Assembly: GCA_016188495.1 (NCBI GenBank)
Contig: JACPHU010000028.1
Coordinates: 38,325 to 102,324, forward strand
DNA length: 64,000 nucleotides
Source: Candidatus Uhrbacteria bacterium
GTDB taxonomy: Bacteria > Patescibacteriota > Patescibacteriia > UBA9934 > GWF2-40-263
Direction of reading: 5' to 3'
Under the pieces are notes generated by a model, which saw only the letters and a program-made list of their open reading frames with translations, did no database searches and had not been told where the DNA came from. Below are positions 5,804 to 37,694 of the stretch, one piece after another (the stretch's first letter is position 1; every line of letters starts with the position of its first letter). The translations under genes and the position numbers were made by a program.

Positions 5804-5878
5804 GCGCTGGTAGCTCAGGGGTAGAGCAAGAGCCTTTTAAGCTCGTGGTCGCGGGTTCAAATCCCGCCCAGCGCACCA
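5804..5878 (+). tRNA. tRNA-Lys (anticodon TTT)
   Basis: Cloverleaf: acceptor GCGCTGG/CCAGCGC, D-arm GCTC-AGGGGTA-GAGC, anticodon stem AGAGC/GCTCG with loop CTTTTAA, T-arm GCGGG-TTCAAAT-CCCGC, discriminator A and an encoded CCA. Confidence 0.9.
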
Positions 5879-5930: not shown

Positions 5931-8732
5931 ATGAATGAACATCTTTGGCACCACCTTCCTCAGGAAGAGATATTGAACATGCTTCACAGCTCTGAACAAG
6001 GACTCACTTCGTCTGAAGTCCTGCATCAGCAGAACCGATATGGAAAAAATGAGTTTCCAAAAGAACACATAGACGGTTGGATGTCTGTTTTTTTAAGACA
6101 GGTCAAAAGTCCTCTGATCATTATTTTGATGATGGCAGGTGTGATCAGCTTCGTTCTCCAGGAATGGGTGGATGTTTGGGTTATTTTTGCCGCTGTCCTA
6201 CTCAATACCGTCATTGGATTTGTTCAAGAGTATAAAGCGAATAAGGCGTTAGAGAATATTCAGAAGCTTGTTCAACCCCGTTCGTTTGTGTACCGCGATG
6301 GAAGAAGCATCGAAATTTTTGCAGAGGACGTTGTTCCAGGCGATCTCTTGATGTTATCGATGGGTGATCGTGTGACGGCTGATGCTCGATTGCTTGAAGC
6401 GATCGAACTGACGACCAACGAATCAGCTCTGACAGGGGAATCTTTTCCTGTGGGTAAAGAAGTCGGGCTTTGTGAAGCTCAAACCTCGTTGGCTGACAGA
6501 TCGAATATGGTTTACACAGGAACCAGCGTGATTGGCGGACGCGGACGGGCCGTGGTTGTCGCCACAGGCATGCGTACAGAGTTGGGGGTGATTGCCGGGT
6601 TGGTTGAGAGCACTGTCCAAACACAAACGCCGCTTCAGGATCAGTTAACCGTTTTAGCCAGATGGCTGGCGGGTCTTGTTTTGGTTTTGGTGACCGTTCT
6701 TTTTATCATAGGGCTTCTTTCGGGAAGGGTGATCACGGAAATGTTTGAAATGTCTGTTGCTGTTGCTGTTGCGGCAATTCCAGAAGGGCTTGTTGTGTCC
6801 GTGACGATCATTCTCGCGATCGGCATGCAAAGAATTTTGCGTCGTCGCTCGCTGGTTCGTCGTCTTGTTGCTGCGGAGACTCTGGGAAGCGTCTCGGTTA
6901 TTTGTTCAGACAAGACAGGAACTCTGACAGAAGGAGAGATGCGTGTCACCCATTTGATGCATTCTGGTCAGACGAAGATGCTCCCTTTTTCTAGAGACAA
7001 CGAATCGGATGCCATCACGAAAAAAATGTTTGAAGTGATGGCACTGTGTAATGATGCGACGTTTATTGATAGCTCGGAAGGGGAACGTATCAATGGAAGC
7101 GCGACAGAGCGAGCTTTGCTAATGGCAGCTATGGATTCGGGAATAGATCTGACAGCTGTGTTAAAAACAAATCCCCGGACAGGAGAAATTCCATTTAATA
7201 GCAGTTCTAAATTCATGGCGATTGCTTGTACTTCTGTACAAGGCATACAGTTTTTGTTGAAAGGAGCTTCCGGCCCTGTCTTGGATATGTGTACGCAGGT
7301 TCAGATTGCCGGGAACATTGTTGAATTGGATTCTCAGCAAAGGAAACAATTAGAAATTCAGGAAGGGACATTAACCCAACAGGGGATTCGCTTGCTGGCA
7401 CTGGCGTTTAAAATCCCTCTGCCTTCTGAAGGGACATTGTCACGTCAATCTCTTGGCGGTTTTACGTTTTTGGGATTTGTGGGGTTACGGGATCCTTTGC
7501 GAACGCAGGCGCGCGAGCAAATTGCATCGGCTGCGCGTGCCGGAGTACGAACGGTTCTTATCACAGGCGACCATCCACAAACCGCCCGTGCGATTGCCCA
7601 AGAGGCGGGGCTCCTGTCAGATCCTGAATCTCTCCTGGTTGTGAATGACGAAACTCGCGATCTTGCGATTTACAGGCGCCCGTCGACCCCACTCTCCCTA
7701 CGTCTGAGTAGGGTTCGTGGGGATCGACAGCCCGTAAATCGCAATCTCATCGATTTTCCTCATTCACAGCTCTTGGTTGTGGGAAGCGAGTTGGACGCCT
7801 GGAGCGATGAAGAACTTTTTCAAAAAGTTAACTTGATTGGAGTCTATGCCCGTGTTGAACCGCGCCATAAAATTCGTATTGTCAAAGCTTGGCAAGCTCG
7901 TGGAGAGGTCGTGGCCATGGTCGGGGACGGAGTCAATGACGCTCCTGCGTTGAAAACGGCTGATATCGGGGTTGCACTAGGATCTGGAACCGAGGTGGCT
8001 AAGCAAGCATCGGATTTAATCCTTCTGAACAATGATTTGGGAACGATCACGGCAGCCATTGAAGAAGGTCGGGTAATTTTTGATAACATCCGCAAAACAA
8101 GTGTCTATCTACTTGCGGATAGTTTTACGGAGCTGATTCTTATCGGAGGTTCTCTGTTGATGGGATTACCTCTTCCGTTATTGCCCGTGCAAATATTATG
8201 GATCAACCTGATCGCCGATAGTTTTCCCACCATCGGCCTTACGCTTGAGCCTCCGGAAGAAGACGTCATGCGCATCCCCCCGCGTGCCCGTACGGAACCT
8301 GTGTTGAATCGGGAAATGCTTACACTCATTTTTGTCATTGGTGTTATTACGGATCTGGTGTTGTTTGTGCTCTATTTTTGGTTATTAGGTTCCATCGAAA
8401 GCATTACCGAGGTTCGTTCTATTTTGTTTGCGGCTGTTGGTATTGATTCTCTTTTTTACGTGTTTGCCGTAAAGCGGCTGCGTACGAGTATTTTTCGCTC
8501 CAATCCTTTTTCTAACCCATGGCTCTTGTTGGGAGAGGTGATTGCTTTGTCTTTGATGCTGCTGGCACTTCTTCATCCGTTCTTCCAGGTCATTTTTGAA
8601 GTGACTCCTCTTTCCTTGTATGAGTGGATGCTATTGCTTATGATGGGAATGATTAAGCTTCTGGCGATTGAAGTCGTCAAAGAGATTTTTTTAAGAAAAA
8701 AGCCAGTGCATGCTCCTCAAGCAATAAATTAA
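5931..8732 (+). CDS. P-type cation-transporting ATPase (P2A, Ca2+/Mg2+-like)
   Basis: Motifs TGES, DKTGTLT (phosphorylation site), ITGDH and GDGVNDAPALK; 10-TM architecture; 933 aa. It contains an in-frame 46-codon insertion, listed separately. Confidence 0.85.
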   Translation: MNEHLWHHLPQEEILNMLHSSEQGLTSSEVLHQQNRYGKNEFPKEHIDGWMSVFLRQVKSPLIIILMMAGVISFVLQEWVDVWVIFAAVLLNTVIGFVQEYKANKALENIQKLVQPRSFVYRDGRSIEIFAEDVVPGDLLMLSMGDRVTADARLLEAIELTTNESALTGESFPVGKEVGLCEAQTSLADRSNMVYTGTSVIGGRGRAVVVATGMRTELGVIAGLVESTVQTQTPLQDQLTVLARWLAGLVLVLVTVLFIIGLLSGRVITEMFEMSVAVAVAAIPEGLVVSVTIILAIGMQRILRRRSLVRRLVAAETLGSVSVICSDKTGTLTEGEMRVTHLMHSGQTKMLPFSRDNESDAITKKMFEVMALCNDATFIDSSEGERINGSATERALLMAAMDSGIDLTAVLKTNPRTGEIPFNSSSKFMAIACTSVQGIQFLLKGASGPVLDMCTQVQIAGNIVELDSQQRKQLEIQEGTLTQQGIRLLALAFKIPLPSEGTLSRQSLGGFTFLGFVGLRDPLRTQAREQIASAARAGVRTVLITGDHPQTARAIAQEAGLLSDPESLLVVNDETRDLAIYRRPSTPLSLRLSRVRGDRQPVNRNLIDFPHSQLLVVGSELDAWSDEELFQKVNLIGVYARVEPRHKIRIVKAWQARGEVVAMVGDGVNDAPALKTADIGVALGSGTEVAKQASDLILLNNDLGTITAAIEEGRVIFDNIRKTSVYLLADSFTELILIGGSLLMGLPLPLLPVQILWINLIADSFPTIGLTLEPPEEDVMRIPPRARTEPVLNREMLTLIFVIGVITDLVLFVLYFWLLGSIESITEVRSILFAAVGIDSLFYVFAVKRLRTSIFRSNPFSNPWLLLGEVIALSLMLLALLHPFFQVIFEVTPLSLYEWMLLLMMGMIKLLAIEVVKEIFLRKKPVHAPQAIN
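7644..7769 (+). repeat. Copy D of the palindromic repeat element, inserted in-frame within the P-type ATPase CDS
   Basis: AAACTCGCGATCTTGC...CAGCCCGTAAATCGCAATCTCATCGATTTTCC aligns with copies A and B. Covarying internal pairs: GCGATTTAC/GTAAATCGC and CCCTAC/GTAGGG. The element plus a 12-nt direct repeat CTCYTGGTTGTG (7632-7643 and 7770-7781) totals 138 nt, or 46 codons, with no stop. It encodes NDETRDLAIYRRPSTPLSLRLSRVRGDRQPVNRNLIDFPHSQLLVV, placed where homologous ATPases have the contiguous loop LLVVGSELD..SDEEL. Confidence 0.55.
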
Positions 8733-10047: not shown

Positions 10048-11529
10048 ATGCCACTAGATCTCTCCTCTATTCAAACGTTTCAGGATGCGACCGTCACTGT
10101 CATGGGATTGGGACGCTACAAAAAGGGAAGCGGTATTGGCGCGGCTAAGTGGCTCATGCGTCACGGAGCCCAGATCGTCATTACGGATTTAAAAGACGAA
10201 AATGAACTCCGCGAATCTATCGATGAGATCATGTATTGGTATACGCAGTATCGCCAGATGGATAAAAGCCATGATATCTATCAGCCGATCTTTGTTTTAG
10301 GTAAACATGATGCTGACAACTTTACGAATGTCGATTTAGTCCTCCAAAATCCTGGGGTACCCCGTGAATCAGAATTTGTTCAGCTTGCCAAAAACCAAGG
10401 TATTCGCGTCGAGTCCGATATCTCTTTATTTTTCCGTTACTGTCCCTTTCCCATTTTCTCCATTACAGGAACTCGTGGAAAATCAACGACCACCGCATTG
10501 CTTGGAGAAATGTTGAAGCACAAACATCCAAAAACCGTTGTGGCAGGAAATATCACTCGTTCTCCGTTGGAAGATTTAGATTGGTTGTTAGAAGAACGTG
10601 AACCGGTTCCTATTGTCCTTGAATTGTCTTCCTGGCTTTTGGAGTCTTTGGAAGGGTTAAAGCTTGGTCCTCAGATTGCTTTGCTCACCAATGCTTACAA
10701 AGATCATCTCGACCGTTATCCCTCCTTTGAGGCGTATGTGGCTGCCAAAGAGCTTATTTTCCAGGAACAAAACCAGGACCAGGCGGCAATTCTCAATGCC
10801 GATCAGGAAATCATGCATGAAATCGCCTCACGTATTCCTTCAAAGCATCTTTATTGGTTTTCAAACGCGTTTTTACCAGAAGGTGCGCAAGGCGTGTATA
10901 CACAACAGGATTCATTGGTCCGACGCATGCAAGGACAAGAAACTGTTTTTGCTCACGTGCACGATTTAAAATTAGGAGGAGATCATAATGTGATGAATGC
11001 GTTGTCCGCCTCCCTTGCCGCTCATCTGGCAGGAGTCTCAGATCAGGATATACATGAAACACTGAAAACATTTGCAGGTCTTCCTGGACGCCAAGAGATT
11101 TTGGGCGAACTCGAAGGCGTGTTATTTGTAAACGATACAACTGCCACCTCTCCTGAAGGCGTTATGGCGGCTTTGGCACGATTTGGAAGAGGAGGAAACG
11201 TCATCTTGCTTTGTGGCGGAAGCTCTAAAGGTCTTTCTTTTACCGAATTGGGAAAGATGATTGGGGAACAATGTAAGTTCGTTGTGGTGTTTGAGGGAAC
11301 GGCCGCAGCAGATATGGAAGAAGCCATTGGGGACAGTGCTCCCTCTGCGCGCGCGAATTCAATGGAAGAAGCCGTGGGTCTTGCTTATAAGAATGCAAAA
11401 TTAGGCGATGTCGTCTTGTTGTCACCTGGAACCTCCAGCTTCGGTATTTTTAAAAACGAATTTGACCGAGGAGATCAGTTTAAAGCCCAGTTTCAGAAGT
11501 TGGGAGGGGAGATTGTAGTAACAGAGTGA
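10048..11529 (+). CDS. murD: UDP-N-acetylmuramoylalanine--D-glutamate ligase
   Basis: N-terminal VTVMGLGRYKKGSGIGAAKWL...VITD Rossmann region, Mur-ligase P-loop ITGTRGKSTTTALLGEML, and a C-terminal domain of MurD length (493 aa). Confidence 0.85.
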   Translation: MPLDLSSIQTFQDATVTVMGLGRYKKGSGIGAAKWLMRHGAQIVITDLKDENELRESIDEIMYWYTQYRQMDKSHDIYQPIFVLGKHDADNFTNVDLVLQNPGVPRESEFVQLAKNQGIRVESDISLFFRYCPFPIFSITGTRGKSTTTALLGEMLKHKHPKTVVAGNITRSPLEDLDWLLEEREPVPIVLELSSWLLESLEGLKLGPQIALLTNAYKDHLDRYPSFEAYVAAKELIFQEQNQDQAAILNADQEIMHEIASRIPSKHLYWFSNAFLPEGAQGVYTQQDSLVRRMQGQETVFAHVHDLKLGGDHNVMNALSASLAAHLAGVSDQDIHETLKTFAGLPGRQEILGELEGVLFVNDTTATSPEGVMAALARFGRGGNVILLCGGSSKGLSFTELGKMIGEQCKFVVVFEGTAAADMEEAIGDSAPSARANSMEEAVGLAYKNAKLGDVVLLSPGTSSFGIFKNEFDRGDQFKAQFQKLGGEIVVTE

Positions 11530-11542
11530 TTGATCCTTCTCT

Positions 11543-11588
11543 AATATTCCCTGAGCGGAGGTTTGTTCGACAAACCGGAGTCGAAGGG
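11543..11588 (+). repeat. R1 intergenic motif, copy I (AATATTCCCTGAGCGGAGG-hairpin-GGAGTCGAAGGG)
   Basis: Shares AATATTCCCTGAGCG and GTCGAAGGG with copies at 15573, 17102, 18878 and 20644. The internal hairpin GGTTTG-TTCGA-CAAACC differs from the other copies but preserves pairing. Confidence 0.5.
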
Positions 11589-11604
11589 TTATGTGATTTG
11601 AAAC

Positions 11605-11640
11605 AAAAAATAGCCTTTTGTGAGGCTATTTTTTGTTTTT
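11605..11640 (+). terminator. Rho-independent terminator downstream of murD and R1 copy I
   Basis: AATAGCCT-TTTGTG-AGGCTATT followed by TTTTGTTTTT. Confidence 0.6.
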
Positions 11641-11655
11641 GGTATGCCATCCATA

Positions 11656-11684
11656 TTGACAAAATGTCAAAAAAAGAGTAGTTT
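11656..11684 (+). promoter_or_regulatory. Putative promoter with a TTGACA-AAA-TGTCAA inverted repeat
   Basis: TTGACA at 11656, a 17-nt spacer, then TAGTTT. The -35 hexamer lies in the inverted repeat TTGACAAAATGTCAA, the mirror of the one at 605-619. Confidence 0.3.
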
Positions 11685-11737
11685 CTTTAGTCGACTTAGA
11701 TGTTCTCAATGTAACGGATTTAAAAGAAGGAGAAAAC

Positions 11738-12562
11738 GTGGAAGAGATCATTTTTGGACTTACAAAATGGATTCCTATAAGTTTTTATAACGTTCTTTTT
11801 TTCACCGTATTCTTTTTTGGACAGGGTCGACGAATAAAGTTTGTTCTAGTTACCTTGGCGTTTGCTGGTTCAGCAGTCTATGCCATGAAGTTCGGTTATT
11901 ATCTTGGGCATGGAAATAAGCTGCTTTATCCATTCGTGATAGAACAGGAGCCAAAGTTAGTCCTCTATATCATCACGTTCTTCTTTTGGGGAATTTTGTT
12001 TGTGACCCAACTCAACTATCGTCAACCCTCTAAACCTCAAAAGGTTTTTTCCTTTGATGCAGAAACCAATGGCTTGTGGGGTCAGCCCTTTGCCATCGGT
12101 GCCATTATCTACAATGAGGAGGGGGTTGAGACTGCTCGATTTGTCGGCCGGTGTCCCATTGTGGGAGAGGTTGACCGTTGGGTGGAGGAGAATGTCCTTC
12201 CTCAGATCATCGATATTTCTGAATCTTACGAGAACTATGAGGCACTTCTTGTGGATTTTGCCCAGTTTTACTTAACCCATCAGAAAGATGATGTGGATGT
12301 GCTGGTCCATATGGGCTACGTGATCGAAGCTCGGATTTTCCGTGACATGCACGATCGCGGCCTTATCGGGGATTGGCAGGCTCCTTATCCCTTGCATGAC
12401 GTGAGTGGAAATCTTCAGGCAGCTGGGGAGGATCCAACGTCTGTAGGGAAATATCTTGCTAAGAAGCGGCTCAACGCAGGTTCTTTTGCTGGAGGGTTCC
12501 ACAATCCGCTGTATGACTGTGCCGCTGCCGCTGTCGCGTATCGCCATCTTCAGGGATGGTAA
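11738..12562 (+). CDS. DEDDh-family 3'-5' exonuclease (DnaQ-like) with N-terminal transmembrane segments
   Basis: GTG start after AAGGAG. The N-terminal ~95 aa are hydrophobic. Exo I motif FSFDAETNGLWG and Exo III motif HNPLYDCAAAAVAY (H-x4-D) are present. Confidence 0.6.
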   Translation: MEEIIFGLTKWIPISFYNVLFFTVFFFGQGRRIKFVLVTLAFAGSAVYAMKFGYYLGHGNKLLYPFVIEQEPKLVLYIITFFFWGILFVTQLNYRQPSKPQKVFSFDAETNGLWGQPFAIGAIIYNEEGVETARFVGRCPIVGEVDRWVEENVLPQIIDISESYENYEALLVDFAQFYLTHQKDDVDVLVHMGYVIEARIFRDMHDRGLIGDWQAPYPLHDVSGNLQAAGEDPTSVGKYLAKKRLNAGSFAGGFHNPLYDCAAAAVAYRHLQGW

Positions 12563-12688
12563 TCAATATTACGTTTAAACCAATGAGTTCTTAAAAGGGA
12601 TTCGTTGGTTTTTTGTTTATCTGTAGTGGATAGCAGATTTATTTGAGAGAAAATGGCTTAAAATAAGCTTATTTTTTGTTTTATTCTA

Positions 12689-12717
12689 TTGACAAAATGC
12701 CTAAAATATGGTATATT
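12689..12717 (+). promoter_or_regulatory. Putative sigma70-like promoter
   Basis: TTGACA at 12689-12694, a 17-nt spacer, then TATATT at 12712-12717. Confidence 0.4.
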
Positions 12718-12858
12718 TTCTGTACATTTTTGGGAGAGAGACGTGATCGCCACACGACCCGCCACAAGGCAAAAGGCGAAGAAATCGGTGTTTTGGATAC
12801 ACTCTCTTGCCGAGAATTGTCTAGAATATCGGTTTTTGTTTTGTTCTTAAAAATTTTG

Positions 12859-13239
12859 ATGAGAAAGGATTGGCCATGTCGAAGGTTTTTCTTTTCGGTG
12901 ACTTCGGGAATGAAGGATGTTCTTCAGCTAGAGCAGATACTTCGGATGCGTGACATCGAGGTACAGCGAACCGAAGATCCTGGGAATGTGTCCGGGTTCT
13001 GTATTGTTTGTTTCTCTGCAGATTTCCAGAGCGGCGATTTCGCTGAGAGACTTCGAGTAAGGCAGTTGAACGGAGGAAATTTGAAACTCGTTCCTGTCGT
13101 ATTGACAGGGGGAGTTGTATCGTCGTTTCTGAAGCATCTGTTTCGGGTGGATTTGTCCGAAGGAGCCGAGAGTTCTCGTTTTGTTTCTACGGATCCGGAA
13201 CTGTTCATCCTGTCAATTACCGGCGTTCGTCGTCGGTAG
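12859..13239 (+). CDS. Hypothetical protein
   Basis: ORF in the 12676 frame; start uncertain between ATG 12859 and ATG 12910. No recognisable motif; G+C is intermediate. Confidence 0.3.
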   Translation: MRKDWPCRRFFFSVTSGMKDVLQLEQILRMRDIEVQRTEDPGNVSGFCIVCFSADFQSGDFAERLRVRQLNGGNLKLVPVVLTGGVVSSFLKHLFRVDLSEGAESSRFVSTDPELFILSITGVRRR

Positions 13240-13350
13240 AGTCTTTATCCATAAACGGGCCTCCCTGCCCATTGCCCTTGTTCCTCAGTGAAGGATTGTT
13301 CCGCGAGAGCGCAGAGGGAAGTCAGCATAGCTGGCCGAGCAGGGTGGGAA

Positions 13351-15495
13351 ATGCCAACAGATGTTGGCCATGTGCGACCGCAAGGCGCACAACCCGTGTC
13401 TCGTAGGAGAAACATGTTCCATCGTGTTGTTGTGATCGCTCCGACTCGGAGCACCTGCGTCAATATTCACACTGTTCTGTCCAACGGTTCCATTCCGCCG
13501 ACTCTCCTCGTTCGCGAGAAGGGTGTGGAACTCTCTGATGCCGTCGCTCATCTCCACGAAGGTGGATTTGGGGTGGTGGCAGGGACCGGAACCGGTAAGA
13601 CAGTCGCAATCAGAAAGATCTGCTCGGACGTTCTGGGAACGGAGCTGCTCATTGACGTGGTGACACGTGAACATGAAGCCACGGAAAAAACGTGGCGTTG
13701 CAATGTTCTCGTCGTTACTCCCGGCGTGGCCCTCAACTGGCTCAAGGCTGGTCGAATCACGGCTGAGGACTTGATCGTTATCGACGAGATCCACCAGACC
13801 TCCGAGCACCTGGAGCTGTCCATGGCTCTGGGGAAGCTCGAGAAGGAAGGGGCGAAGACTGGTTGCACTTTCGTCTGGATGTCGGCGACCATCGACCCCG
13901 CGACCTATCGGGGGTACCTCAACGCCAGGACGGTGATCTCCTGTGATGCCTTCGATCCAAGTCGTAGGGCAAAGGTCGAAGTACTGTATGCGGGTGTTCA
14001 AGAGTATCTCGAAGGGGAACTCAAGAACATCCAACAGGAACAGCGGTCGGTGGCGGTGTTCGTACCGACTCGTGCCCTCGCGGAGAAACTATCTCGCGAA
14101 CTAGGAGGACGGGGAGTTCATACGGACTTCTATCACGGAGGCGAGTCCGCCGAGAAGCTCCGCCCATTCCTGACCGGCAATGTACCGCGGCCGTTCATGG
14201 TATTCATGACGATCGCGGGCGCATCGAGCCTCAACATTCTCGGACTGGACACTGTTGTCATCGTTGACCAATGGTTTACCGAAGTAATTCGGGATGGAGG
14301 AAGGAAATCTCTCGAGAAGCTCTATCTCGGAGATAACGAACTTCTCCAGATGGGAGGGCGAGTAAATGGTCGAGCCGTCAACGGCAAGATCGTGATCCTC
14401 TCCAATCGTCAGGTGGACTTCCACAGTCTCAAGCCCGTGGCCCCCCAGTTCGTTCTTGGAGGAGATCTCGAGAATACGGCACTGATCTGTGCCCGTCTGG
14501 GGATCGATGCTCGTAATCTCGACCTGATCGGAAAGATCGATCATAAGGCGTATGCCCGCGTGGTCGAACGGTTCCGTCAGCGAGGATTGCTGGTCGTCAA
14601 CGGTGAGATCCATCTCACGGCTCTGGGTGAACATGTCGAAAAGCTGCCTGTCGAGCCTCATTGGGGGGAGATGTTGGTGGCGGCTGAGGACGTCGGGGAT
14701 CGTAAACTCTTCAATCTGATTACGGTTGTTGCCTCCTGTGGACAGCTGTACCAGATGCACCGGAAGGAATGGAATCGATTCTCCGGTGTGTGCGTGAGGG
14801 GGTCCGACCACCTCACGGCCTACAATATCGTGGTTCAGGCTTTGAACCAGTTCGGGTCTATCCGACAAAGCCGTGAAGGTCGTGAAAGCGAGTACACCCT
14901 TCGTGGGGACTGGTATCGAGGCCCTGATAACAAGGGGGAGTTCGCAGAGTGGTGTGACAAGAACGGGTTCGTCGGTAAGGAGATCAAGAACGTTCTCCTG
15001 TCTATGAAATCCATTTTTCGCACGCTCCAGATGCCTCTCCCCAAACCTGAGGAGTTCGAGGTTGTGACACTGGACTCAGAGGCTCACAAGTCCTTTGTCG
15101 GTCTTCTGGCAAAAGTCCAGTCTCTCGAGTTCGTCCGTGGAGAACAGAACTCTTTTGCTGGCACCGTTTGGGCCACGCAGGGAGGTATGTCCTCGACTTC
15201 GCAGACTCTCGGTTCCATTCGGTTCTGGAAGGATAAGAGGGGGTATCTGCGTGCCAGTATGGAAGGGACGGAAATCCCAACCGACCTGGTGCAGAAGCAC
15301 TCTTTCAAAACTCCAGAGAATCTGAAGGGAATGATCCAGGACGGAGATCGTTTCCAGATTAGTTACTCCGCGACCTTTGCGGGGGAGAAGATCAATCCGA
15401 TCGAGCGGGAGCTTGATCCGGATGACGTCCCAGAAGCCTGGCAGAGCGAGCTTCCGAGTCACTTCGCCTCCTGGCTGGCGAGCCAGATGGTTTGA
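13351..15495 (+). CDS. DEAH/RHA-family ATP-dependent helicase (HrpA/HrpB-like)
   Basis: Motif I AGTGTGKT, motif II VIDEIH, SAT motif MSATIDP, motif VI QMGGRVNGRA, and an HA2-like region LTALGEHVEKLPVEPHWGEMLVAAE followed by a C-terminal OB-like region. Start at the ATG at 13351 preceded by GGGTGGGAA; the GTG at 13288 and ATG at 13414 are alternatives. The sequence is G+C-rich. Confidence 0.75.
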   Translation: MPTDVGHVRPQGAQPVSRRRNMFHRVVVIAPTRSTCVNIHTVLSNGSIPPTLLVREKGVELSDAVAHLHEGGFGVVAGTGTGKTVAIRKICSDVLGTELLIDVVTREHEATEKTWRCNVLVVTPGVALNWLKAGRITAEDLIVIDEIHQTSEHLELSMALGKLEKEGAKTGCTFVWMSATIDPATYRGYLNARTVISCDAFDPSRRAKVEVLYAGVQEYLEGELKNIQQEQRSVAVFVPTRALAEKLSRELGGRGVHTDFYHGGESAEKLRPFLTGNVPRPFMVFMTIAGASSLNILGLDTVVIVDQWFTEVIRDGGRKSLEKLYLGDNELLQMGGRVNGRAVNGKIVILSNRQVDFHSLKPVAPQFVLGGDLENTALICARLGIDARNLDLIGKIDHKAYARVVERFRQRGLLVVNGEIHLTALGEHVEKLPVEPHWGEMLVAAEDVGDRKLFNLITVVASCGQLYQMHRKEWNRFSGVCVRGSDHLTAYNIVVQALNQFGSIRQSREGRESEYTLRGDWYRGPDNKGEFAEWCDKNGFVGKEIKNVLLSMKSIFRTLQMPLPKPEEFEVVTLDSEAHKSFVGLLAKVQSLEFVRGEQNSFAGTVWATQGGMSSTSQTLGSIRFWKDKRGYLRASMEGTEIPTDLVQKHSFKTPENLKGMIQDGDRFQISYSATFAGEKINPIERELDPDDVPEAWQSELPSHFASWLASQMV

Positions 15496-15572
15496 CCCAT
15501 ACGGAGATCTGAGGACTCCTAAACAATTCCTCATCAAACGTTCCCAAGCTGCACACGCAAGCGGCTTGGGAT

Positions 15573-15670
15573 TTCAACTGGAAGACTGATTCGATCGGTC
15601 TCCTGAGAAGTCAAAACCTCGAATATTCCCTGAGCGAGGAGTTCTCGACGAGTCGAAGGGGAAATATTCG
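15573..15670 (+). repeat. R1 intergenic element, copy II (extended form)
   Basis: TTCAACTGGAAGACTGA...TCTCCTGAGAAG...GAATATTCCCTGAGCGAGGAG...GTCGAAGGGGAAATATTCG aligns over ~100 nt with copy III. It lies 45 nt upstream of the 15718 ATG. Confidence 0.55.
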
Positions 15671-15717
15671 TCAATGTTCTTTAAAACAATCCGTGAAAGC
15701 GGAAGAAGGAGAAAGAA

Positions 15718-16473
15718 ATGGTTGAGATTCAAACGATTCTTTCTGTAGAGATGGATGAGTGTGTGGAAACAGGAATGTCTTTCAAGGCTCTTCGAGGAAT
15801 TATCCGTGAATATACCGGTGAAGAATTGCCGGTGTGTCCGGATGTTCAAGATCCAGTCTATTTCTATCATGAGGAGACGGGCAATCCTATGCTCCTCACT
15901 GAGGATCTTAATTGTGGAGAGATCCGTGGAGAGCAGAAACGAGGGGTTCAGATCGGAAGTTTGCTCCTCGTTATTTCAGAAGAGAATGGGTGTGCGGATG
16001 AATGGACTCTTACGTCACCGATTCTCTCGTTTCTTTCCGTCTACCTCCTTCCCGACACTTCTACTTTCAACACTCCTGCGAAGGAGAAGGTTGTGACAAA
16101 GATCGACGATCTCGACCTCATCGGACAGGTTGTTCGTGAGAGGATCTGGATCGAGGAGGATCCGGACAACCAGTATTTCAGTGTTCCTCCGGAGGAGGGT
16201 GTGCAGATGTGGACCGAGGAGGAGGCGAGAGTCTTTTTCGTCTTTGGATTTCAGATCGAACTCCCTCCCGACACCCATCCCTGGGGTTTCTCGACTCAGG
16301 TGGGGGATCTGGGTCCAGATCCCATTGACGTTGACGTTGTTGTCTTTTGGGACGGTGACGGCACGGCGATCATTCGTCTGCGAAAGGAGGGGTGTGAGAA
16401 TATCACCCTCATAAACAGGGATTGTAAGAAGGATTACGGGTGGAAAAAGATAGGAGTCAACGATGATGTTTGA
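15718..16473 (+). CDS. Hypothetical acidic protein
   Basis: 251 aa, preceded by an AAGGAG RBS; G+C-rich codon usage; no recognised motif. Confidence 0.45.
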   Translation: MVEIQTILSVEMDECVETGMSFKALRGIIREYTGEELPVCPDVQDPVYFYHEETGNPMLLTEDLNCGEIRGEQKRGVQIGSLLLVISEENGCADEWTLTSPILSFLSVYLLPDTSTFNTPAKEKVVTKIDDLDLIGQVVRERIWIEEDPDNQYFSVPPEEGVQMWTEEEARVFFVFGFQIELPPDTHPWGFSTQVGDLGPDPIDVDVVVFWDGDGTAIIRLRKEGCENITLINRDCKKDYGWKKIGVNDDV

Positions 16474-16813
16474 GACTGCGCTTCAGTTCCTTATTCCCTA
16501 CATGGGATGGGGGATCGTGATCCTTGCCGTGATGATCGTGTTGGATGTGATCCTCACGATTCATCGGAGCCATGGAATGTTCGACCTGGAATGCCAGGCC
16601 GAGCGGATCAACGAGGACTTTGATGAGTTGGAAAAGACTCATGGCCTCGTCCGGTCCCGATGGAGGGGTCGCCTGAAATTGTTCCTCTACGTTTGCGCCT
16701 GGCCGATCGTGGTCGGGCGATGGCTCAAAGTGACTTATTACGGCGAGACAACGTTTGTTGAGAAGATTCTCGCCGGGGCTAAGAAAAAAATCAAAGAGAA
16801 GAAAGGGGAGTAA
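16463..16813 (+). CDS. Hypothetical membrane protein
   Basis: 116 aa with an N-terminal TM helix (WGIVILAVMIVLDVILTI); overlaps the upstream gene by 11 nt. Confidence 0.4.
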   Translation: MMFETALQFLIPYMGWGIVILAVMIVLDVILTIHRSHGMFDLECQAERINEDFDELEKTHGLVRSRWRGRLKLFLYVCAWPIVVGRWLKVTYYGETTFVEKILAGAKKKIKEKKGE

Positions 16814-17041
16814 ATGATAATGTTTTTGTTCATCCTGGTACTGCTTGGATTTTTCGACGGTTTGTCTGGATCTCAGGCAAGCTGGCTGATGATCAAGTTC
16901 GCACTGTTCTACTGGGTTGTGGAACTGGTCCTGGATATTACGATCGGAGATCGATTCAGGACTTGGTACAAAACGACCCGTTTGCATGGATTTTTAGTAG
17001 GAGTTCTGAAGAAAAATTTCGGGGATCATAGGATCCCATAA
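16814..17041 (+). CDS. Hypothetical small membrane protein
   Basis: 75 aa with two hydrophobic helices; its ATG immediately follows the upstream stop. Confidence 0.35.
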   Translation: MIMFLFILVLLGFFDGLSGSQASWLMIKFALFYWVVELVLDITIGDRFRTWYKTTRLHGFLVGVLKKNFGDHRIP

Positions 17042-17101
17042 CGGCTTTCGAGTCTGCATAGCGGCGGGCTCGGAGGTGGCGAGGGATTACACTCTCGCCG
17101 C

Positions 17102-17208
17102 TTCAATTGGAAGACTGAGAAAATCTCGGTTTCCTGAGAAGGTTAAATATCCGAATATTCCCTGAGCGGAGGCTCGTCAGACGAGCCGAAGTCGAAGGGG
17201 AGATATTC
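17102..17208 (+). repeat. R1 intergenic element, copy III (extended form)
   Basis: TTCAATTGGAAGACTGAGA...TTTCCTGAGAAG...GAATATTCCCTGAGCGGAGG-GCTCGTC-AGA-GACGAGC-CGAAGTCGAAGGGGAGATATTC. An AGGAGG RBS lies 9 nt upstream of the 17245 ATG. Confidence 0.55.
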
Positions 17209-17244
17209 ACCAACGTTCCTCAAATAATCAGGAGGTTCTCCGTG

Positions 17245-18726
17245 ATGCAGACTGTTATCGATCACAATCGTACTGTCGCCGCCCGTGCGGTTCAGCTCAA
17301 CATTCGGGTCGGAGAGAATCGTTTCCCGGTCATGGATCGCACTGCACTTGCAACCTGGCTCGTCAGTCGGCTCAAAGGAGCCCGTCGGGTTTCGGAAGTT
17401 CAGAATTGGGACGTTTTGCGTCTGCCGGATCTGGACCAGGCTCTGGTCGCCCAGACGCTCGCCGAGTGTCCGGACACATTGAATGTCCTGGGTGTGGATG
17501 TCCTGGTGGAATATCGGGCGCCTTACTGCGGCATACCTCAGGCTCCGCGAGTGTCTCTTCCGGAAGAATTGGTGGCCAAGATGGGTTGGACCAATCTCCC
17601 GGACGAGGGCGTCGTCCTTCCTAGCGGACGGATGGTCGAGGTGTCTTTCTCGATTCGGTCCGGTTACTACGGGACGTCTTTTTTCGGAACCGACATCCTG
17701 CAGCTCAAGGAACAGGTGAGAGATCATTTGAACCAGGGTCAGTGGGATCGCTGGGTCATCAAGCCTGAGATTGTTCTTCCGAATATGTCGGATGCGACCG
17801 TCACCATCCCCGAGATCATCGCCGACGATTATGGTCGGTGTGTGGTCACTGGGCGATATCTTTTCGCCTACGGTACGGTGCAACCCTACCGTTACTACTC
17901 TTCAGACCCGCTGACCTGGAAGTCTTTCTGGACCCGCAATTGGGCGGAGGCTGAGAAGATGCATGCCAAGGCGGTCGCGGAGTTGGAGAAGAATCGCGAA
18001 GCAATCCGTCTCGAGGCCCAGCGTGGGCAGATGATGGAGGAGGTCGAGTCTCTCAAGACCCAGGCGAGCGAGCTGTATAATCTGGCTTACAACCAGTACT
18101 ACAGCGAGTTCGATTCTGATCTGCGTACTCAGATCTACTATCTGCGCAGCCCGTCGTTTTACTCGTCCACCGGTGTGGTGGAGATTAATCGCTGGATCAA
18201 CGAGACCAAGCCGGTTCTGGCGAAGGCGCAAGCCGAAGTCGATCGGATCACTACTCAGCGTGCTGAGGCCGAACGAATTCGTTTGGAGACGGAAGAACTC
18301 GAGAAGCGAGAACTCGAGATCATTCTGCCTTTGGTAGATGATCGTATGAAGGTAGCTCGGGACATCCTTTGTTTTGCCAAGGCGGTTGAATCTCTCAAAG
18401 GGGCTGTCAAGGGAGCCTGTCTTCTTCGCGGTGAACTGTCAGCTTCGTACGGTCGAGCTCGGCGACAACAGGTGTTGCGAGAGGCTCTGCCGACTCTCGA
18501 TGAATATGACAATGCCAGTGGAGTTCTCTACTTCAATCGAGCCGCGGATGTAGATCTGTGGCTTGAAGCGGCGGCAACCTGGCTCGAGTCTCGCAATGGT
18601 GGTCCCGTGGCAGTTTCGAAGAAGTCGGTTCCGAAGCCTTCTTCTACGATATCGGCTCCAACGTCTTCCAACGGCGGTGGGTTTACCCTCGCTGATCTGG
18701 CTGGCAAGTTCAGTTCTCGACGCTAA
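17245..18726 (+). CDS. Hypothetical protein with a central coiled-coil region
   Basis: About 493 aa from the ATG at 17245 (the track starts at a GTG at 17242). Residues ~250-370 are heptad-rich (AEAEKMHAKAVAELEKNREAIRLEAQRGQMMEEVESLKTQ...), and the C-terminus is Ser/Gly-rich. Confidence 0.45.
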   Translation: MQTVIDHNRTVAARAVQLNIRVGENRFPVMDRTALATWLVSRLKGARRVSEVQNWDVLRLPDLDQALVAQTLAECPDTLNVLGVDVLVEYRAPYCGIPQAPRVSLPEELVAKMGWTNLPDEGVVLPSGRMVEVSFSIRSGYYGTSFFGTDILQLKEQVRDHLNQGQWDRWVIKPEIVLPNMSDATVTIPEIIADDYGRCVVTGRYLFAYGTVQPYRYYSSDPLTWKSFWTRNWAEAEKMHAKAVAELEKNREAIRLEAQRGQMMEEVESLKTQASELYNLAYNQYYSEFDSDLRTQIYYLRSPSFYSSTGVVEINRWINETKPVLAKAQAEVDRITTQRAEAERIRLETEELEKRELEIILPLVDDRMKVARDILCFAKAVESLKGAVKGACLLRGELSASYGRARRQQVLREALPTLDEYDNASGVLYFNRAADVDLWLEAAATWLESRNGGPVAVSKKSVPKPSSTISAPTSSNGGGFTLADLAGKFSSRR

Positions 18727-18877
18727 ACACTCCCCTCACACGAGGGGTTCACAACACGAGGAGGATCGCGCATACGCACGCGCGATCCTCTCCTCAATTT
18801 CCTCCGTCACAATAGGGTGATGTGGGATGAGAGGAAAGCAAAAAGAAAAACAACCTCAAAGTGAGATTGTTTCCACG

Positions 18878-18915
18878 CATATTCCCTGAGCGAGGAGTTC
18901 TCGACGAGTCGAAGG
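18878..18915 (+). repeat. R1 intergenic motif, copy IV
   Basis: CATATTCCCTGAGCGAGGAGTTCTCGACGAGTCGAAGGG is identical over 34 nt to the core of copy II. It sits between two convergent genes. Confidence 0.5.
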
Positions 18916-18928
18916 GTTGCATCTAGGA

Positions 18929-19486
18929 TTATGCACGCGGAAAGGGCTCCATGTTCATAATATGTTGCGCTGATTCCACAGGAAGCACTTTATATTTCAC
19001 GAGTTCCTCAACCAAGACGTTGAGTTTACGATCTTCTTTACGCATCAGAACAGTGAAGTCCCCGCGAAGATCACCAAGCTTTTCATCCAAATAGTCTTTT
19101 GTGACCATGTTTGTTTTCAGATAAGAAACGTCTGTTTCAACTCCAGAAAGTCTATTCTCAACTCCAGAAAGACGATTTTCTATCCCCGTAAAACGTTCTT
19201 CTGTATGTTGGGCGAAGGTGTTAATGGTCGATAAAATGTCGTCATTTTGTTGAGCGAGCTTGTCAGTCTCAAGAACGAGCTTATCGGTCTTAAGAACAAG
19301 TTGTTCGTTCTGTTGAGCCAGCTTATCGGTCTTAAGAACAAGTTGTTCGTTCTGTTGAGCGATTTTATCGGTCTTAAGAACAAGTTGTTCGTTCTGTTGA
19401 GCGATTTTATTGATTGCTAAAAGAATATCATTTTGAGTTGGTTCGTTCATACATTTTGGATTATAACACACAGACGCATTCCTCAT
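18929..19486 (-). CDS. Coiled-coil protein with tandem 14-aa repeats
   Basis: 185 aa. Contains AQQNEQLVLKTDK(L/I) repeated three times plus degenerate copies; lower G+C than neighbouring genes. Confidence 0.45.
   Translation of the reverse strand: MRNASVCYNPKCMNEPTQNDILLAINKIAQQNEQLVLKTDKIAQQNEQLVLKTDKLAQQNEQLVLKTDKLVLETDKLAQQNDDILSTINTFAQHTEERFTGIENRLSGVENRLSGVETDVSYLKTNMVTKDYLDEKLGDLRGDFTVLMRKEDRKLNVLVEELVKYKVLPVESAQHIMNMEPFPRA
19241..19406. repeat. Tandem 42-nt direct repeats (about 3.5 copies) inside the 18929..19486 CDS
   Basis: The unit TTATCGGTCTTAAGAACAAGTTGTTCGTTCTGTTGAGC(GATT/CAGC) recurs at 19281, 19323 and 19365, with a degenerate copy upstream. The repeats are in-frame and encode the 14-aa repeat. 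Confidence 0.6.
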
Positions 19487-19589
19487 AATTTTAGAATAAT
19501 CATCGCATTATTCTCCTCAATTTCCCTCGTCATAATAATGTGATGATGGATGAGAGGATCTTCCGGGTCAATACAACAAGGAGACACAC

Positions 19590-20477
19590 ATGAGCTTTGC
19601 TCGTGAAGTGTTTTTTGGAAAAGTTGACCTGGACACGCTTGTGACATCTCTTGTTCTAGGACTCAATCCTAGCGAGATATTGTTCAAAGCGGTTGCTGGG
19701 TCCGTGTCTGAGGTCATGCTGGCGGATACGTCCGTGATGGCCATCGAAGTCGGCGGAAGCGGAAGAGTCGCCGAGAATAACTTCGACCATCATTCTTCCA
19801 AAGGAGGGACCACTCTTTCCTCTGCAGCTCAGGCGCTTGAGCGTCTTGCTCGACTTGTCCGCTATGTGGATGAGCTCGATCGGGGTGATCGTCGTGCTGA
19901 GTATGTAAAGGACGGCGGATTTCCATCGCTGTCTCAGCTCATTTCGGGAATGCTCCTTGTTGAGCATAGTCCCAATGTCCGTATGGAAAGAGGACTGGAA
20001 CTCCTCAAAGTCGTTCTTCACAGCGGAATCGATCCGTTTGGTTCCATGGATGCTATTCTGGATTTTATTCCTCAAGGTCGTTTGTATGCCTCCACAAAAC
20101 GGGAGCATGATCGACAGTTTGAGGAAATGTCTAGAACGGCGACGTGGTACACCACAAACGAGGGTCGAAGATTTGCGGTGGTAGAAACTTCCTGGATCGG
20201 CGCGCTGGGTGTTTTATATGGGAAAGGAGCGGATATCGTTCTTGCTCTCAATCCTGAAATGTCCAAGTCGGACGGAAACGGAAGCTACAAAAAATTCACC
20301 CTCGCGGTGAATCGGTCTGTCGTAGATATCACAGTCTTTCCCGTCCTTGAAGAGCTGTTAAAACTCGAAGAGGGATGGGGCGGACCAAATCATGGAGGAA
20401 TCTGCGGGTCTCCGGTTGGAAGAAATTCTGAATTGGAGATTCAACAAGTTGTTCAGATCGTGATCGAGAAACTGTAA
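19590..20477 (+). CDS. Hypothetical protein
   Basis: 295 aa, G+C-rich, no recognised motif. Confidence 0.45.
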   Translation: MSFAREVFFGKVDLDTLVTSLVLGLNPSEILFKAVAGSVSEVMLADTSVMAIEVGGSGRVAENNFDHHSSKGGTTLSSAAQALERLARLVRYVDELDRGDRRAEYVKDGGFPSLSQLISGMLLVEHSPNVRMERGLELLKVVLHSGIDPFGSMDAILDFIPQGRLYASTKREHDRQFEEMSRTATWYTTNEGRRFAVVETSWIGALGVLYGKGADIVLALNPEMSKSDGNGSYKKFTLAVNRSVVDITVFPVLEELLKLEEGWGGPNHGGICGSPVGRNSELEIQQVVQIVIEKL

Positions 20478-20643
20478 AAGACAGAACGTTCATACTCTTG
20501 CGGAATAAAAAAGTAGCCCAAAAAGTGGCGAAATGATGTTCCAGCATGTTTCGGGTGAAAACTCCGCCCGGGACTGGTATCGTTTTGCGCTTTTGCAAGG
20601 CAAACCAGTGAGGCATTCGTGCCTAGCATGACTTCTCTTCCAT

Positions 20644-20672
20644 TTCCGGGCGGAGGCTCGGAAGAGAAGGGG
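20644..20672 (+). repeat. R1 motif, degenerate copy V, immediately upstream of the 20684 ATG
   Basis: TTCCGGGCGGAGGCTCGGAAGAGAAGGGGAG matches copy III (TTCCCTGAGCGGAGGCTCG...GAAGTCGAAGGGGAG). Confidence 0.35.
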
Positions 20673-20683
20673 AGTATGAGTAG

Positions 20684-21697
20684 ATGTCGGAGTCCATTTC
20701 TAATCGCAAGCTTCTCGTGATCGCCGGCGGTTCGCCTTCGTCTATCATCGCCACGTATCTCTATTTGAGTGACGGTGGAGTGGACCCTGAGACCGTGCTG
20801 GAGCAGATGAAGGCAGGTGAGATTCAAGTGGTCTTCACTCAGGCCTTTCAGGTCGGTGAGCATCCCAGGTTTGGAGTGAGCGAGGCGCTCAAGGCTGTGC
20901 GTGAACTGCCGAAAGATGGGCAAGTCGTCTGGATCGGACTGGGCGTGAACAACCAGGATCCCCAGATGACCGAGAACATTTTTCGTGAGATCGGCATTGA
21001 TCGCCTCCATGTGGTCTGTGATGAGCATGAGCCCGAGCGCTGGGAAGCTCTCATGGAAAAGCTTGGTTTTGTTTCCGGGCAGTTTTCTCTCAAGACCAAG
21101 CCGGAACATCGTTCGGCTGCCTCCATCGTTGCGGAGGATTTCGGTGTGCCCATTTACGAAATCTTCGTTCAGGCGGGTGATTGGGCCGACAATCGGCAGA
21201 TGGATGTTTCCGATGAGGCACAGAGAATCGCCTTTTCTATCTCGGCCGCAACTAAGCTGAGGATGGGAGACAATGCGTTTCGTGTGACAGCCCTTCTGCA
21301 TCTGTTGGGAGACCGGGAGGCGCGGAAGGAGTTCTACGTTCGTCTTGAGGCTGCGGGTCCGGTGTATGCTGCCGTGGAGGAGGCTTTGGCCAACGCTCAG
21401 ATGCAGGGCCAGATCCTGGTCGTCCATAAGAAGGAGGGCGAGGCGGGTCTGGTCTTCGATGATACCGACGCGATGAACCAGGGGTACGCTCGTGCTCCGT
21501 TTGTGGTTGTCATCGGAGAGAAGTCTGGAGAGGGTCCGTGCATTCAGGTCGGGGTGAACAACAGCCACCCGACTCTGGGCAAGACGAACCTGCTTCAGGT
21601 TCTCGCCGACTTCGGTCCCACAGGAATCGTCCCGAAGGTCGCCATCCGTGGGACCGAGAATCTTTTTGAGATTCTTGTGAGGCTCAACGCTCTGTAA
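20684..21697 (+). CDS. Hypothetical protein
   Basis: 337 aa, G+C-rich, no recognised motif. Confidence 0.45.
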   Translation: MSESISNRKLLVIAGGSPSSIIATYLYLSDGGVDPETVLEQMKAGEIQVVFTQAFQVGEHPRFGVSEALKAVRELPKDGQVVWIGLGVNNQDPQMTENIFREIGIDRLHVVCDEHEPERWEALMEKLGFVSGQFSLKTKPEHRSAASIVAEDFGVPIYEIFVQAGDWADNRQMDVSDEAQRIAFSISAATKLRMGDNAFRVTALLHLLGDREARKEFYVRLEAAGPVYAAVEEALANAQMQGQILVVHKKEGEAGLVFDDTDAMNQGYARAPFVVVIGEKSGEGPCIQVGVNNSHPTLGKTNLLQVLADFGPTGIVPKVAIRGTENLFEILVRLNAL

Positions 21698-25677: not shown

Positions 25678-25807
25678 GAGATCTTTGCAAAACTCGCGAT
25701 CTTGCCCTTCACGGGCGCCCGTTGACCACACTCTCCCTATGAGGAATAGGCTTCGTGCGGCAGGGCAGCCCGTTCAAGACAATCTCATCGAGTTTTGTAA
25801 AGATCTC
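25678..25807 (+). repeat. Copy A of the palindromic repeat element, filling the spacer between the 23806 gene stop and the giant-gene start
   Basis: GAGATCTTTGCAAAACTCG...CGATCTTGCCCTTCACGGGCGCCCG...CCCTATGAGGAATAGG...GCAGCCCGTTCAAGACAATCTCATCGAGTTTTGTAAAGATCTC. The terminal 19-bp stem has one G-U wobble (GCAAAAC vs GTTTTGT), allowed only in plus-strand RNA. The copy has no stop in one frame. Confidence 0.6.
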
Positions 25808-25816
25808 ATAAACCAC

Positions 25817-37567: not shown

Positions 37568-37694
37568 ATCTTTGCAAAACTCGCGATCTTGCCTTTCACG
37601 GGCGCCCACCCTCCACACTTTCCCTATTGTGAATAGGGTTCGTGCGGCAGGGCAGCCCGTTCAAGGCAATCTCATCGAGTTTTGCAAAGATCTC
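37566..37694 (+). repeat. Copy B of the palindromic repeat element, overlapping the stop codon of the upstream gene
   Basis: AGATCTTTGCAAAACTCG...CGAGTTTTGCAAAGATCT is a perfect 18-bp terminal stem. The internal hairpin CCCTATT-GTG-AATAGGG covaries with CCCTAT-GAGGA-ATAGG in copy A. Confidence 0.6.

Follow-up and report, generated by a model that had tools for sequence, protein, structure and literature searches.

Hairpin repeats in a Candidatus Uhrbacteria contig, probably solo modules of a GIY-YIG-associated, REPIN/RAYT-like repeat family

Repetitive extragenic palindromic (REP) sequences and their paired forms (REPINs) are the commonest non-coding repeats in bacteria. To our knowledge, they have been tied to only one enzyme class, the HUH/Y1 REP-associated tyrosine transposases (RAYTs). 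The bacterial interspersed mosaic elements (BIMEs) and REPIN-RAYT systems of Enterobacteria and Pseudomonas consist of short imperfect palindromes, which are extragenic, reach high copy numbers, often form inverted pairs that combine two subtypes and seldom lie between divergent genes. Their small nuclease/transposase gene is flanked by inverted copies. A repeat family with these same traits is present in a 64-kb stretch of a Candidatus Uhrbacteria genome (GCA_016188495.1, contig JACPHU010000028.1, positions 38,325 to 102,324; hereafter the window). The copies in the window are probably solo hairpin modules of a selfish, REPIN/RAYT-like family associated with a small GIY-YIG nuclease gene. Unlike REP/BIME, this family has no GTAG/GTGG head, and its conserved module is a G.A-rich internal loop below a freely variable apical hairpin. 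Unlike in REPIN-RAYT, the linked gene encodes a single-domain GIY-YIG protein (UPF0213-like) and not an HUH/Y1 tyrosine transposase, and the open reading frame (ORF) fills the loop of a single doublet, with repeats directly adjoining its start and stop codons.

The window contains four real copies (I–IV), all on the + strand, sharing the layout AATATT-CCCTGAGCG-(variable hairpin)-RAGTCGAAGGG. A search with AATATTCCCTGAGCGRAGG, allowing up to 3 mismatches, gave four matches in the window against 0.02 expected, and the pattern CCCTGAGCGN{8,38}GTCGAAGGG gave four exact matches against 0.00 expected. Copies I and III are of a long form, with 7–8-bp apical hairpins of differing sequence. Copy I (11543..11588, +) stands solo and reads AATATT-CCCTGAGCG-GA-(GGTTTGT TCG ACAAACC)-GGA-GTCGAAGGG, an exact match to the pattern, with a score of 69.3 bits (E=1e-21) against the family covariance model (R1). 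The core of copy III (17154..17199, +) reads AATATT-CCCTGAGCG-GA-(GGCTCGTC AGA GACGAGCC)-GAA-GTCGAAGGG and scored 70.6 bits (E=4e-22); as RNA it folds with -25.3 kcal/mol (z=-3.4). Copies II and IV are of a short form, in which CGAGG-AGT-TCTCG pairs with a G.T wobble. The core of copy II (15622..15660, +) reads AATATT-CCCTGAG-(CGAGG AGT TCTCG)-ACGA-GTCGAAGGG and scored 38.1 bits (E=1e-10). Copy IV (18878..18916, +), a solo copy with a core identical to that of copy II, scored 36.1 bits (E=5e-10) and is part of the window repeat family D4 (95% identity). The initial annotation had described the internal hairpins as varying yet remaining paired, and we found the same for GGTTTG/CAAACC in copy I, GGCTCGTC/GACGAGCC in copy III and the short form of II and IV.

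Five copies had been claimed originally. Copies I–IV were recovered at the reported positions, far above chance, while the fifth, reported at 20644, was confirmed neither by the covariance model nor by alignment, and we did not count it as a member. This doubtful copy V (20641..20677, +) reads ATTTCC-GGGCGGAGGCTCG-(11-nt gap)-GAAG-AGAAGGGGAG and folds as a different, perfect hairpin. The family model did not detect it at E≤10 with filters off. Its local alignment with copy III scored 27, compared with a 99th percentile of 21 for window segments and a score of 29 for one unrelated segment. It could be a decayed relic with an 11-nt deletion, or a chance similarity. Half-site searches and a filter-free covariance-model scan revealed no further copies in the 64 kb.

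Members of the family are short (about 30–65 nt), dispersed, extragenic and hairpin-forming. An A/T-rich head (AATATT) is followed by an outer stem (CCCU/AGGG), and a conserved purine-rich module (5' GAGCG-RA / 3' GRA-GUCGA) lies between the outer and the apical stem. Judging by its sequence, tandem sheared G.A pairs could form and stack around a G-C pair in this module, a pairing scheme that thermodynamic folding does not model. The apical hairpin varies freely, from a GC-GNA-GC mini-hairpin up to >20 bp, with short forms retaining a minimal GC-GNA-GC or GC-GNNA-GC mini-hairpin. Model R1 was built from a seed alignment of 22 long-form copies (A2), in which all seven apical-stem pairs had changes on both sides and 96.8% of the cells were paired. 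Among 125 copies, 12 of the 13 pairs covaried and 98.3% were paired, compared with 36–63% for slid controls, in an alignment fitted to model R1, which favours the structure. The outer stem covaried as well, from CCCT/AGGG to CTCT/AGAG in locus L225 and to CCCC/GGGG in L228.

We scanned 185,579 species-representative genomes with the head and both arms as query (ATATTCCCTGAGCG N8-38 GTCGAAGGG). The head-plus-core was found in 60 loci from about 25 assemblies, with many copies per genome. These assemblies were overwhelmingly Patescibacteria, or candidate phyla radiation (CPR), including Uhrbacteria, Saccharibacteria, Parcubacteria and unclassified groups. A minority belonged to Gammaproteobacteria, Methylomirabilis, Lentisphaerae and other metagenome-assembled genomes. 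The assembly STA_55 had 23 loci, Cand. Uhrbacteria GW2011_GWF2_39_13 had nine (15 copies) and SO_2017_GW3_23 had eight. Model R1 detected 125 copies in 428 kb of fetched genome loci. Both window subtypes, long and short, were found in an Uhrbacteria genome at 85–100% identity. Over 48 nt, the core of copy I matched a copy from Cand. Uhrbacteria LBWG01 (L103 7769-7816) at 100% identity, and copy II shared 93–97% identity with short-form copies in the LBWG01 loci L096, L103, L136 and L137. A looser arm pattern matched 79 viral-collection contigs, of which roughly 50 could be chance by estimate; several of the matched contigs had 2–5 copies or nested arrays. Looser variants were also present near GIY-YIG genes in other metagenomes. 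The covariation and the occurrence in many other genomes show that the element is not a local duplication, an origin that the initial annotation had considered.

The link with a nuclease appeared in locus L127, where an 88-aa ORF encoding a GIY-YIG domain protein sits in the middle of a dense repeat array. The closest solved structures of this ~88-aa single-domain protein are the UPF0213 proteins 1ZG2 and 1YWL. Scanning metagenomes with an alignment of four small GIY-YIG proteins returned 80 loci. Model R1 matched 25 times in them, and some 17 of these matches lay no more than 300 nt from the GIY-YIG gene. A strict core regular expression matched 39 times in the GIY-YIG genes and their surrounding 300 nt on each side (67 kb) and 11 times in the remaining 274 kb, an enrichment of about 14-fold; shuffled sequence gave 1.7 matches in total. 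Within the close subfamily (≥62% identity), elements flanked the GIY-YIG gene in all 12 inspected loci. Ten of these (L091, L142 and eight loci on long contigs) had a clean layout, in which a forward element immediately precedes the ATG and a reverse element immediately follows the stop codon; L127 and L141 had more complex arrays. In the eight long-contig loci the forward element ended at most 14 nt before the start codon, or overlapped the annotated start (L227), and the reverse element started within about 20 nt after the stop. The eight units lay between eight different gene pairs: LexA/DinB, GT4/methyltransferase, orphan ORF/ATP synthase epsilon, orphan ORF/TsaE then PolA, PyrG/L27, YchF/ComEC, Wzy-like/unknown and unknown/PMT. 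These ORF-carrying units are roughly 350–400 bp long and look autonomous.

The enrichment and the repeated layout mean that chance clustering is no explanation for the association. They thereby also speak against a classical REP/BIME family mobilised by a RAYT (HUH/Y1) encoded elsewhere, for which the GIY-YIG association would be a coincidental clustering in repeat-rich spacers. Such a family would account for the short imperfect palindromes, the high copy number, the extragenic location, the inverted pairs of two subtypes and the depletion between divergent genes. However, the AATATT head takes the place of a REP head, and GTAG or GTGG was found within 12 nt upstream in none of 129 copies. 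A tblastn search of 1.45 Mb of fetched loci, weak because it relied on approximate IS200 TnpA and E. coli RAYT queries, revealed no Y1-transposase-like ORF, and Y1_Tnp was not among the top 25 families adjoining the elements. We therefore regard mobilisation by a RAYT as very unlikely.

The position of the nuclease gene relative to the repeats is precise. Tail-to-tail doublets without an ORF, from SO_2017_GW3_23, have the structure GTCGAAGGG-CTACC-(10 nt)-ATGGTAG-tCCTTCGAC. The L091 unit reads GTCGAAGGG-CTACCAT-ATG...TGG-TAG-CCCTTCGAC, and its CTACC.../...GGTAG junctions are common with the ORF-less doublets; the ORF therefore occupies the doublet loop. Close homologues found by a protein search (E≤1e-10) numbered at least 216. 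Among them, the 120 listed had 66–80% identity to the query (the query itself aside), all of them carried PF01541, and those with a named source came from several CPR lineages. The residues Y8, Y18, G20, R28, H32 and E65 were invariant in 34 homologues (67–80% identity, several CPR lineages), and from general knowledge of the GIY-YIG fold we take them to be the candidate catalytic set. Many of the more distant GIY-YIG homologues were flanked by variants of the same design (gtcatcCTGAGCttGTCGAAGGatg, gtcatggtGAGC..GTCGAAccatgac), others by other hairpin families, and several abutted tRNA genes. In L106 (4005-4500, STA_55) a distant small GIY-YIG gene was nested in another hairpin repeat, CCACCCCCGCGGAGGCGGGGTC, and in L033 (2250-3050), a G+C-rich viral-collection contig, in a gtcattccggaatttcgcg... 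repeat. The nesting of these genes in other hairpin families suggests that the pattern of a nuclease in a hairpin nest may be general.

The main rival explanation keeps the association and reverses the causality. The repeats would be independent and possibly useful to the host, for example as mRNA 3'-end stabilisers, transcription insulators or nucleoid-protein sites. They would have spread by another route, and the GIY-YIG gene would be a homing parasite of doublet loops. Homing would indeed give an ORF located precisely in the doublet loop, with junctions common with ORF-less doublets. An 88-aa nuclease without a DNA-binding domain of its own, and the presence of 125 elements next to only two subfamily nuclease genes in 428 kb, are also in agreement with a parasite. 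E. coli REPs stabilise upstream mRNA, and the elements are enriched, as E. coli REPs are, at gene 3' ends and between convergent genes. On the other hand, a sense-strand RNA function would predict an orientation bias relative to the flanking genes or strand, which we did not see, and a T-run is missing. Furthermore, the genes of L106 and L033, which lie in unrelated hairpin families, fit better with co-evolving partner pairs than with a single conserved homing site. Overall, we consider the homing parasite unlikely, with a higher probability than the other alternatives. The family does resemble GIY-YIG homing genes (I-TevI, Seg proteins) in its small, presumably selfish ORF, in its varied contexts and perhaps in having sites with and without the ORF. 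Classical GIY-YIG homing enzymes, however, have a separate DNA-binding domain and a unique target in a conserved gene. The protein described here is a bare ~88-aa catalytic domain, and its site is a multi-copy hairpin repeat outside group I introns.

Several further observations were made on the small GIY-YIG genes and their arrays. In six metagenome loci (L156, L162, L175, L176, L177 and L179) they stood, together with their flanking hairpins, directly beside tRNA genes. In L162 and L177 the gene was located between duplicated tRNA segments, which suggests insertion at or into tRNA genes. Tandem units of ~112 nt, each with a forward minimal and a reverse long element, flanked the GIY-YIG gene in L127 (2380-2640) and L223 (2740-3420). 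The upstream spacer differed in length between L223 and L224, two Sungbacteria assemblies, hinting at variation in array length. Genes of the 23S_rRNA_IVP family, another small ORF type from hairpin-borne intervening sequences, were found about 1 kb from GIY-YIG units on two unrelated CPR contigs (L223 4270-4650 and L225 3946-4317). GIY-YIG ORFs are present in non-intron insertion sequences of CPR rRNA genes (PMC11270868), and GIY-YIG genes are among those predicted to transfer horizontally from Patescibacteria (PMC12455944).

The genomic behaviour of the family is that of a dispersed DNA repeat. By crude ORF calls, 88 of 129 elements were intergenic: 38 between convergent genes, 11 between divergent genes and, between co-directional genes, 24 in sense and 15 in antisense orientation. 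The genes beside the elements were unrelated housekeeping genes, including those for glycosyltransferases, MreB, PilM, NUDIX, queuosine synthesis, thymidylate synthase and RuvB. Relative to the local GC skew there was no strand bias (48 of 89 on the G-rich strand). Inverted neighbour pairs at most 60 nt apart comprised 52 of 125 copies (42%), with 11 pairs tail-to-tail and 16 head-to-head. Long and short subtypes were paired in L087 and in three LBWG01 loci (L103, L136, L137). A run of four or more T within 20 nt after the element was seen in only 12 of 129 copies. We detected no signal of target-site duplications (TSDs): flanking direct repeats had a mean length of 3.43 compared with 3.33 in mismatched-flank controls, and the fraction of ≥5 nt was 0.16 compared with 0.17, although a short TSD could be missed because the exact element ends are not fixed. 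Together, context, orientation, pairing and the T-run, GTAG and TSD data give the profile of REP/BIME-like DNA and not of a sense-strand regulatory RNA.

Two other types of mobile DNA can be compared on these grounds. Like miniature inverted-repeat transposable elements (MITEs) and the Neisseria Correia elements and Neisseria intergenic mosaic elements (NIME, with dRS3), the family consists of small non-autonomous repeats with inverted termini, whose transcribed hairpins can alter mRNA stability in those systems. It also forms mosaic intergenic arrays like those of Correia/NIME, for example the tandem forward/reverse arrays of L127 and L223. Unlike MITEs and Correia elements, it shows no detected TSD and no DDE transposase parent, its units are far shorter, and what is conserved lies within the hairpin and not at the tips. 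With the subterminal hairpins of the insertion sequences IS200/IS605 it shares imperfect hairpins with conserved irregularities and, as proposed here, recognition of folded single-stranded DNA by a small nuclease. It differs from them in the enzyme fold, in the lack of evidence for left-end/right-end asymmetry or a guide sequence, and in the absence of a strand bias when local GC skew serves as the proxy for replication direction.

The roles initially suggested as possible were a leader or processing RNA element, a regulatory site and a small ribozyme. As a cis-acting structured RNA, the element could act on the mRNAs that carry it in several ways: it might serve as a leader, help in RNase processing or in stability, bind a protein through a G.A-rich loop-E or K-turn-like module, or cleave itself as a small ribozyme. 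Both stems covary strongly, a purine-rich internal loop is conserved on one strand, and G.U wobbles are found in copies II and IV and in a hairpin upstream of II and III. In addition, each of the four window copies reads in the same direction as the + strand genes flanking it, two of them just upstream of a ribosome-binding site (RBS). Yet a DNA hairpin equally predicts covariation of a palindrome. Folded as DNA, both strands are about equally stable, so the folding energies do not discriminate between them. Both orientations are equally common across the family, neighbour genes are functionally unrelated, copies pile up between convergent genes and 42% stand in inverted pairs, and the elements bracket the nuclease ORF like terminal inverted repeats. 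Scanning the whole window with Rfam 15 at the gathering score gave only two tRNAs and none on the elements. At E≤10 over 11000-21500 nothing was found on the elements either, with all self-cleaving ribozyme models included (hammerhead, twister, pistol, hatchet, HDV-like). The earlier remark that the core does not fit a hammerhead was borne out: the CUGA...GAA pieces come without the N7-G8-A9 part of the core and without stem III, and there was no covariance-model match. We thus judge an RNA role, including that of a protein-binding site, improbable. Two simpler signals were considered and set aside as well. For an intrinsic terminator, the scarcity of T-runs leaves the U-run missing in most copies. 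A promoter with the upstream partner TTCGACA as -35 and AATATT as -10 would have a spacing of 14 to >20 nt, and the TTCGACA partner is absent from the window.

The surroundings of the window copies agree with the initial description: copy I follows a murD-like stop codon, II and III precede start codons, and IV lies between convergent genes. The murD-like stop precedes copy I by 13 nt, and a separate canonical terminator follows at 11607-11639. The next start codon is 51 nt (II) and 36 nt (III) from the model match, or 57 and 42 nt from the core. Copy IV is placed between the convergent ORFs 17242-18726 (+) and 18929-19486 (-). The adjoining ORFs are orphans in PADLOC, NCBIfam and Pfam, except for a DEAD/DEAH-box helicase-like protein (13288-15495) and the MurD-like ligase. 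No connection between the element and the functions of these ORFs was apparent.

The spacing of copies II, III and IV at 1.5–1.8 kb, each beside a single orphan ORF, is superficially cassette-like. It could recall integron attC or other site-specific recombination sites that delimit cassettes in the G+C-richer block at 13-19 kb. The element sequences, though, have no R''/R' core sites (RYYYAAC / GTTRRRY), the scanned ORFs of 10-39 kb contain no recombinase or integrase domain, and elsewhere the family lies between ordinary housekeeping genes. An attC-like site is hence the least credible of the explanations, with hardly any probability left. For each of the RAYT-REP, the cis-regulatory RNA or ribozyme and the attC-like readings, at least one test gave a contradicting result.

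Copies II and III are embedded in larger composite units. Pairwise alignment of the two regions identified ~125 nt in common, consisting of an upstream hairpin, an outer stem (GAATATTCCC / GGGGARATATTC) and a 3' tail, in agreement with the upstream sharing and the near-complementary outer segments described earlier. The composite around copy II (15573..15685, +) has an upstream hairpin GACTGA..TCGGTC with a T.G wobble (15573-15610), the outer stem GAATATTCCC/GGGGAAATATTC and the 3' tail CAATGTTCTTTAAA; it stops ~30 nt ahead of the ATG at 15718. The composite around copy III (17102..17224, +) is homologous to 15573-15685, has a long-form core and stops 18 nt ahead of the GTG at 17242. Its upstream hairpin (17102-17140) contains two G.U/U.G wobbles. 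The upstream 17-mer occurs in the window only at 15573 and 17102, and the upstream half of the composites had no match in 220 fetched loci. The composites may have arisen by local duplication of a spacer already holding an element, after which the core subtype was exchanged. That II and III stand close upstream of an RBS reflects where these copies happen to lie; it is no trait of the family.

By analogy with structure-specific GIY-YIG nucleases such as Slx1 and UvrC, with RAYT-REP and with homing, we propose the following mechanism. The nuclease would recognise the conserved GAGC/GTCGA module on the folded hairpin, in extruded or single-stranded DNA, and nick it. Repair or recombination would then copy the element, or copy the ORF into ORF-less doublets, much as a RAYT acts on REPINs or as a homing endonuclease does. 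No nuclease gene is present in the window, so its copies are passengers. If transcribed, they would form stable stem-loops in mRNA, after the murD-like gene, between the cistrons of the G+C-richer block and at a convergent 3' end. By analogy with E. coli REPs, they could incidentally affect mRNA decay or translation.

Several points weigh against the GIY-YIG-associated family as the source of the window copies. By tblastn there is no GIY-YIG gene in the 64-kb window, and the 72 kb sampled from LBWG01, the closest relative, showed none either. The ORF-filled and ORF-less sites compared come from non-orthologous loci, and the association could be reversed, if the nuclease gene homed into repeats that were already there. 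Part of the arm conservation follows from the choice of seeds, most of which were selected with exact arms. The gene calls behind the context counts were crude longest ORFs, which placed 33 of 129 elements 'inside' an ORF. The G.U wobbles and the RBS-proximal position of composites II and III are not accounted for by the family model, and their upstream half was matched nowhere else. Weighing both sides, membership of the window copies in such a selfish, REPIN/RAYT-like family is still the reading we find most probable.

A broader proposal, which we put forward tentatively and with less confidence than family membership itself, is that the ~88-aa GIY-YIG gene and the hairpins together make up a hitherto undescribed class of selfish bacterial element, a GIY-YIG counterpart of REPIN-RAYT. 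A bare GIY-YIG domain in the loop of an inverted pair might maintain or spread dozens to hundreds of ORF-less solo and doublet copies per genome. Variants of the same design (stem-GAGC-NN-GTCGAA-stem) might be widespread beyond the CPR, often beside tRNA genes. We found no description of the repeat or of a GIY-YIG-repeat partnership in the literature, although recent preprints that mine intergenic elements may contain one. If a single-domain GIY-YIG nuclease does partner with the repeats, it would be a second, independent solution to the problem solved by RAYTs. It would give a function to the very common small 'GIY-YIG / UPF0213' protein family and make available a compact, structure-specific nuclease whose DNA hairpin substrate is defined. 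The repeats would also explain one source of assembly breaks in Patescibacteria metagenome assemblies, and they may underlie some spurious small ORFs. The sole public contig with an identical MurD-like protein terminates inside copy I, which looks like an assembly break at the repeat. For the window, the appropriate annotation is a dispersed repeat and not a regulatory RNA of the neighbouring orphan genes.

The window also holds other repeats. A second, larger rod-like hairpin repeat (~125 nt) was found at 7640-7766, 25690-25795 and 37577-37682, and elsewhere in L103 (5254-5381), L128 (6726-6830) and L080 (604-710). It has 47 predicted pairs, 16 with compensatory changes, and no Rfam match. 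One copy lies within a P-type ATPase ORF (5931-8732) and one within the annotated 5' end of a 3500-aa ORF. A terminator-like hairpin with a TATTGACAAAATG promoter-like box follows two successive genes, at 11607-11680 and 12650-12713 (families D2 and D14). Direct repeats of 47 nt, 85% identical (18789-18835 and 19512-19558), surround the minus-strand coiled-coil ORF 18929-19486, which itself holds a run of 21-nt tandem repeats at 19231-19410. Just upstream of a tRNA (5804-5875), the segment 5667-5796 matches parts of the Uhrbacteria loci L114 and L128 at about 81–83% identity. Finally, N-termini of type IV secretion system (T4SS) pilins (TrbC/VirB2-like) are fused to Ig-like, TIG and VWA domains at 23806-25677 and 25544-36046, including the 3500-aa protein. 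Such fusions are typical of Patescibacteria, in keeping with the taxonomic placement of the window.

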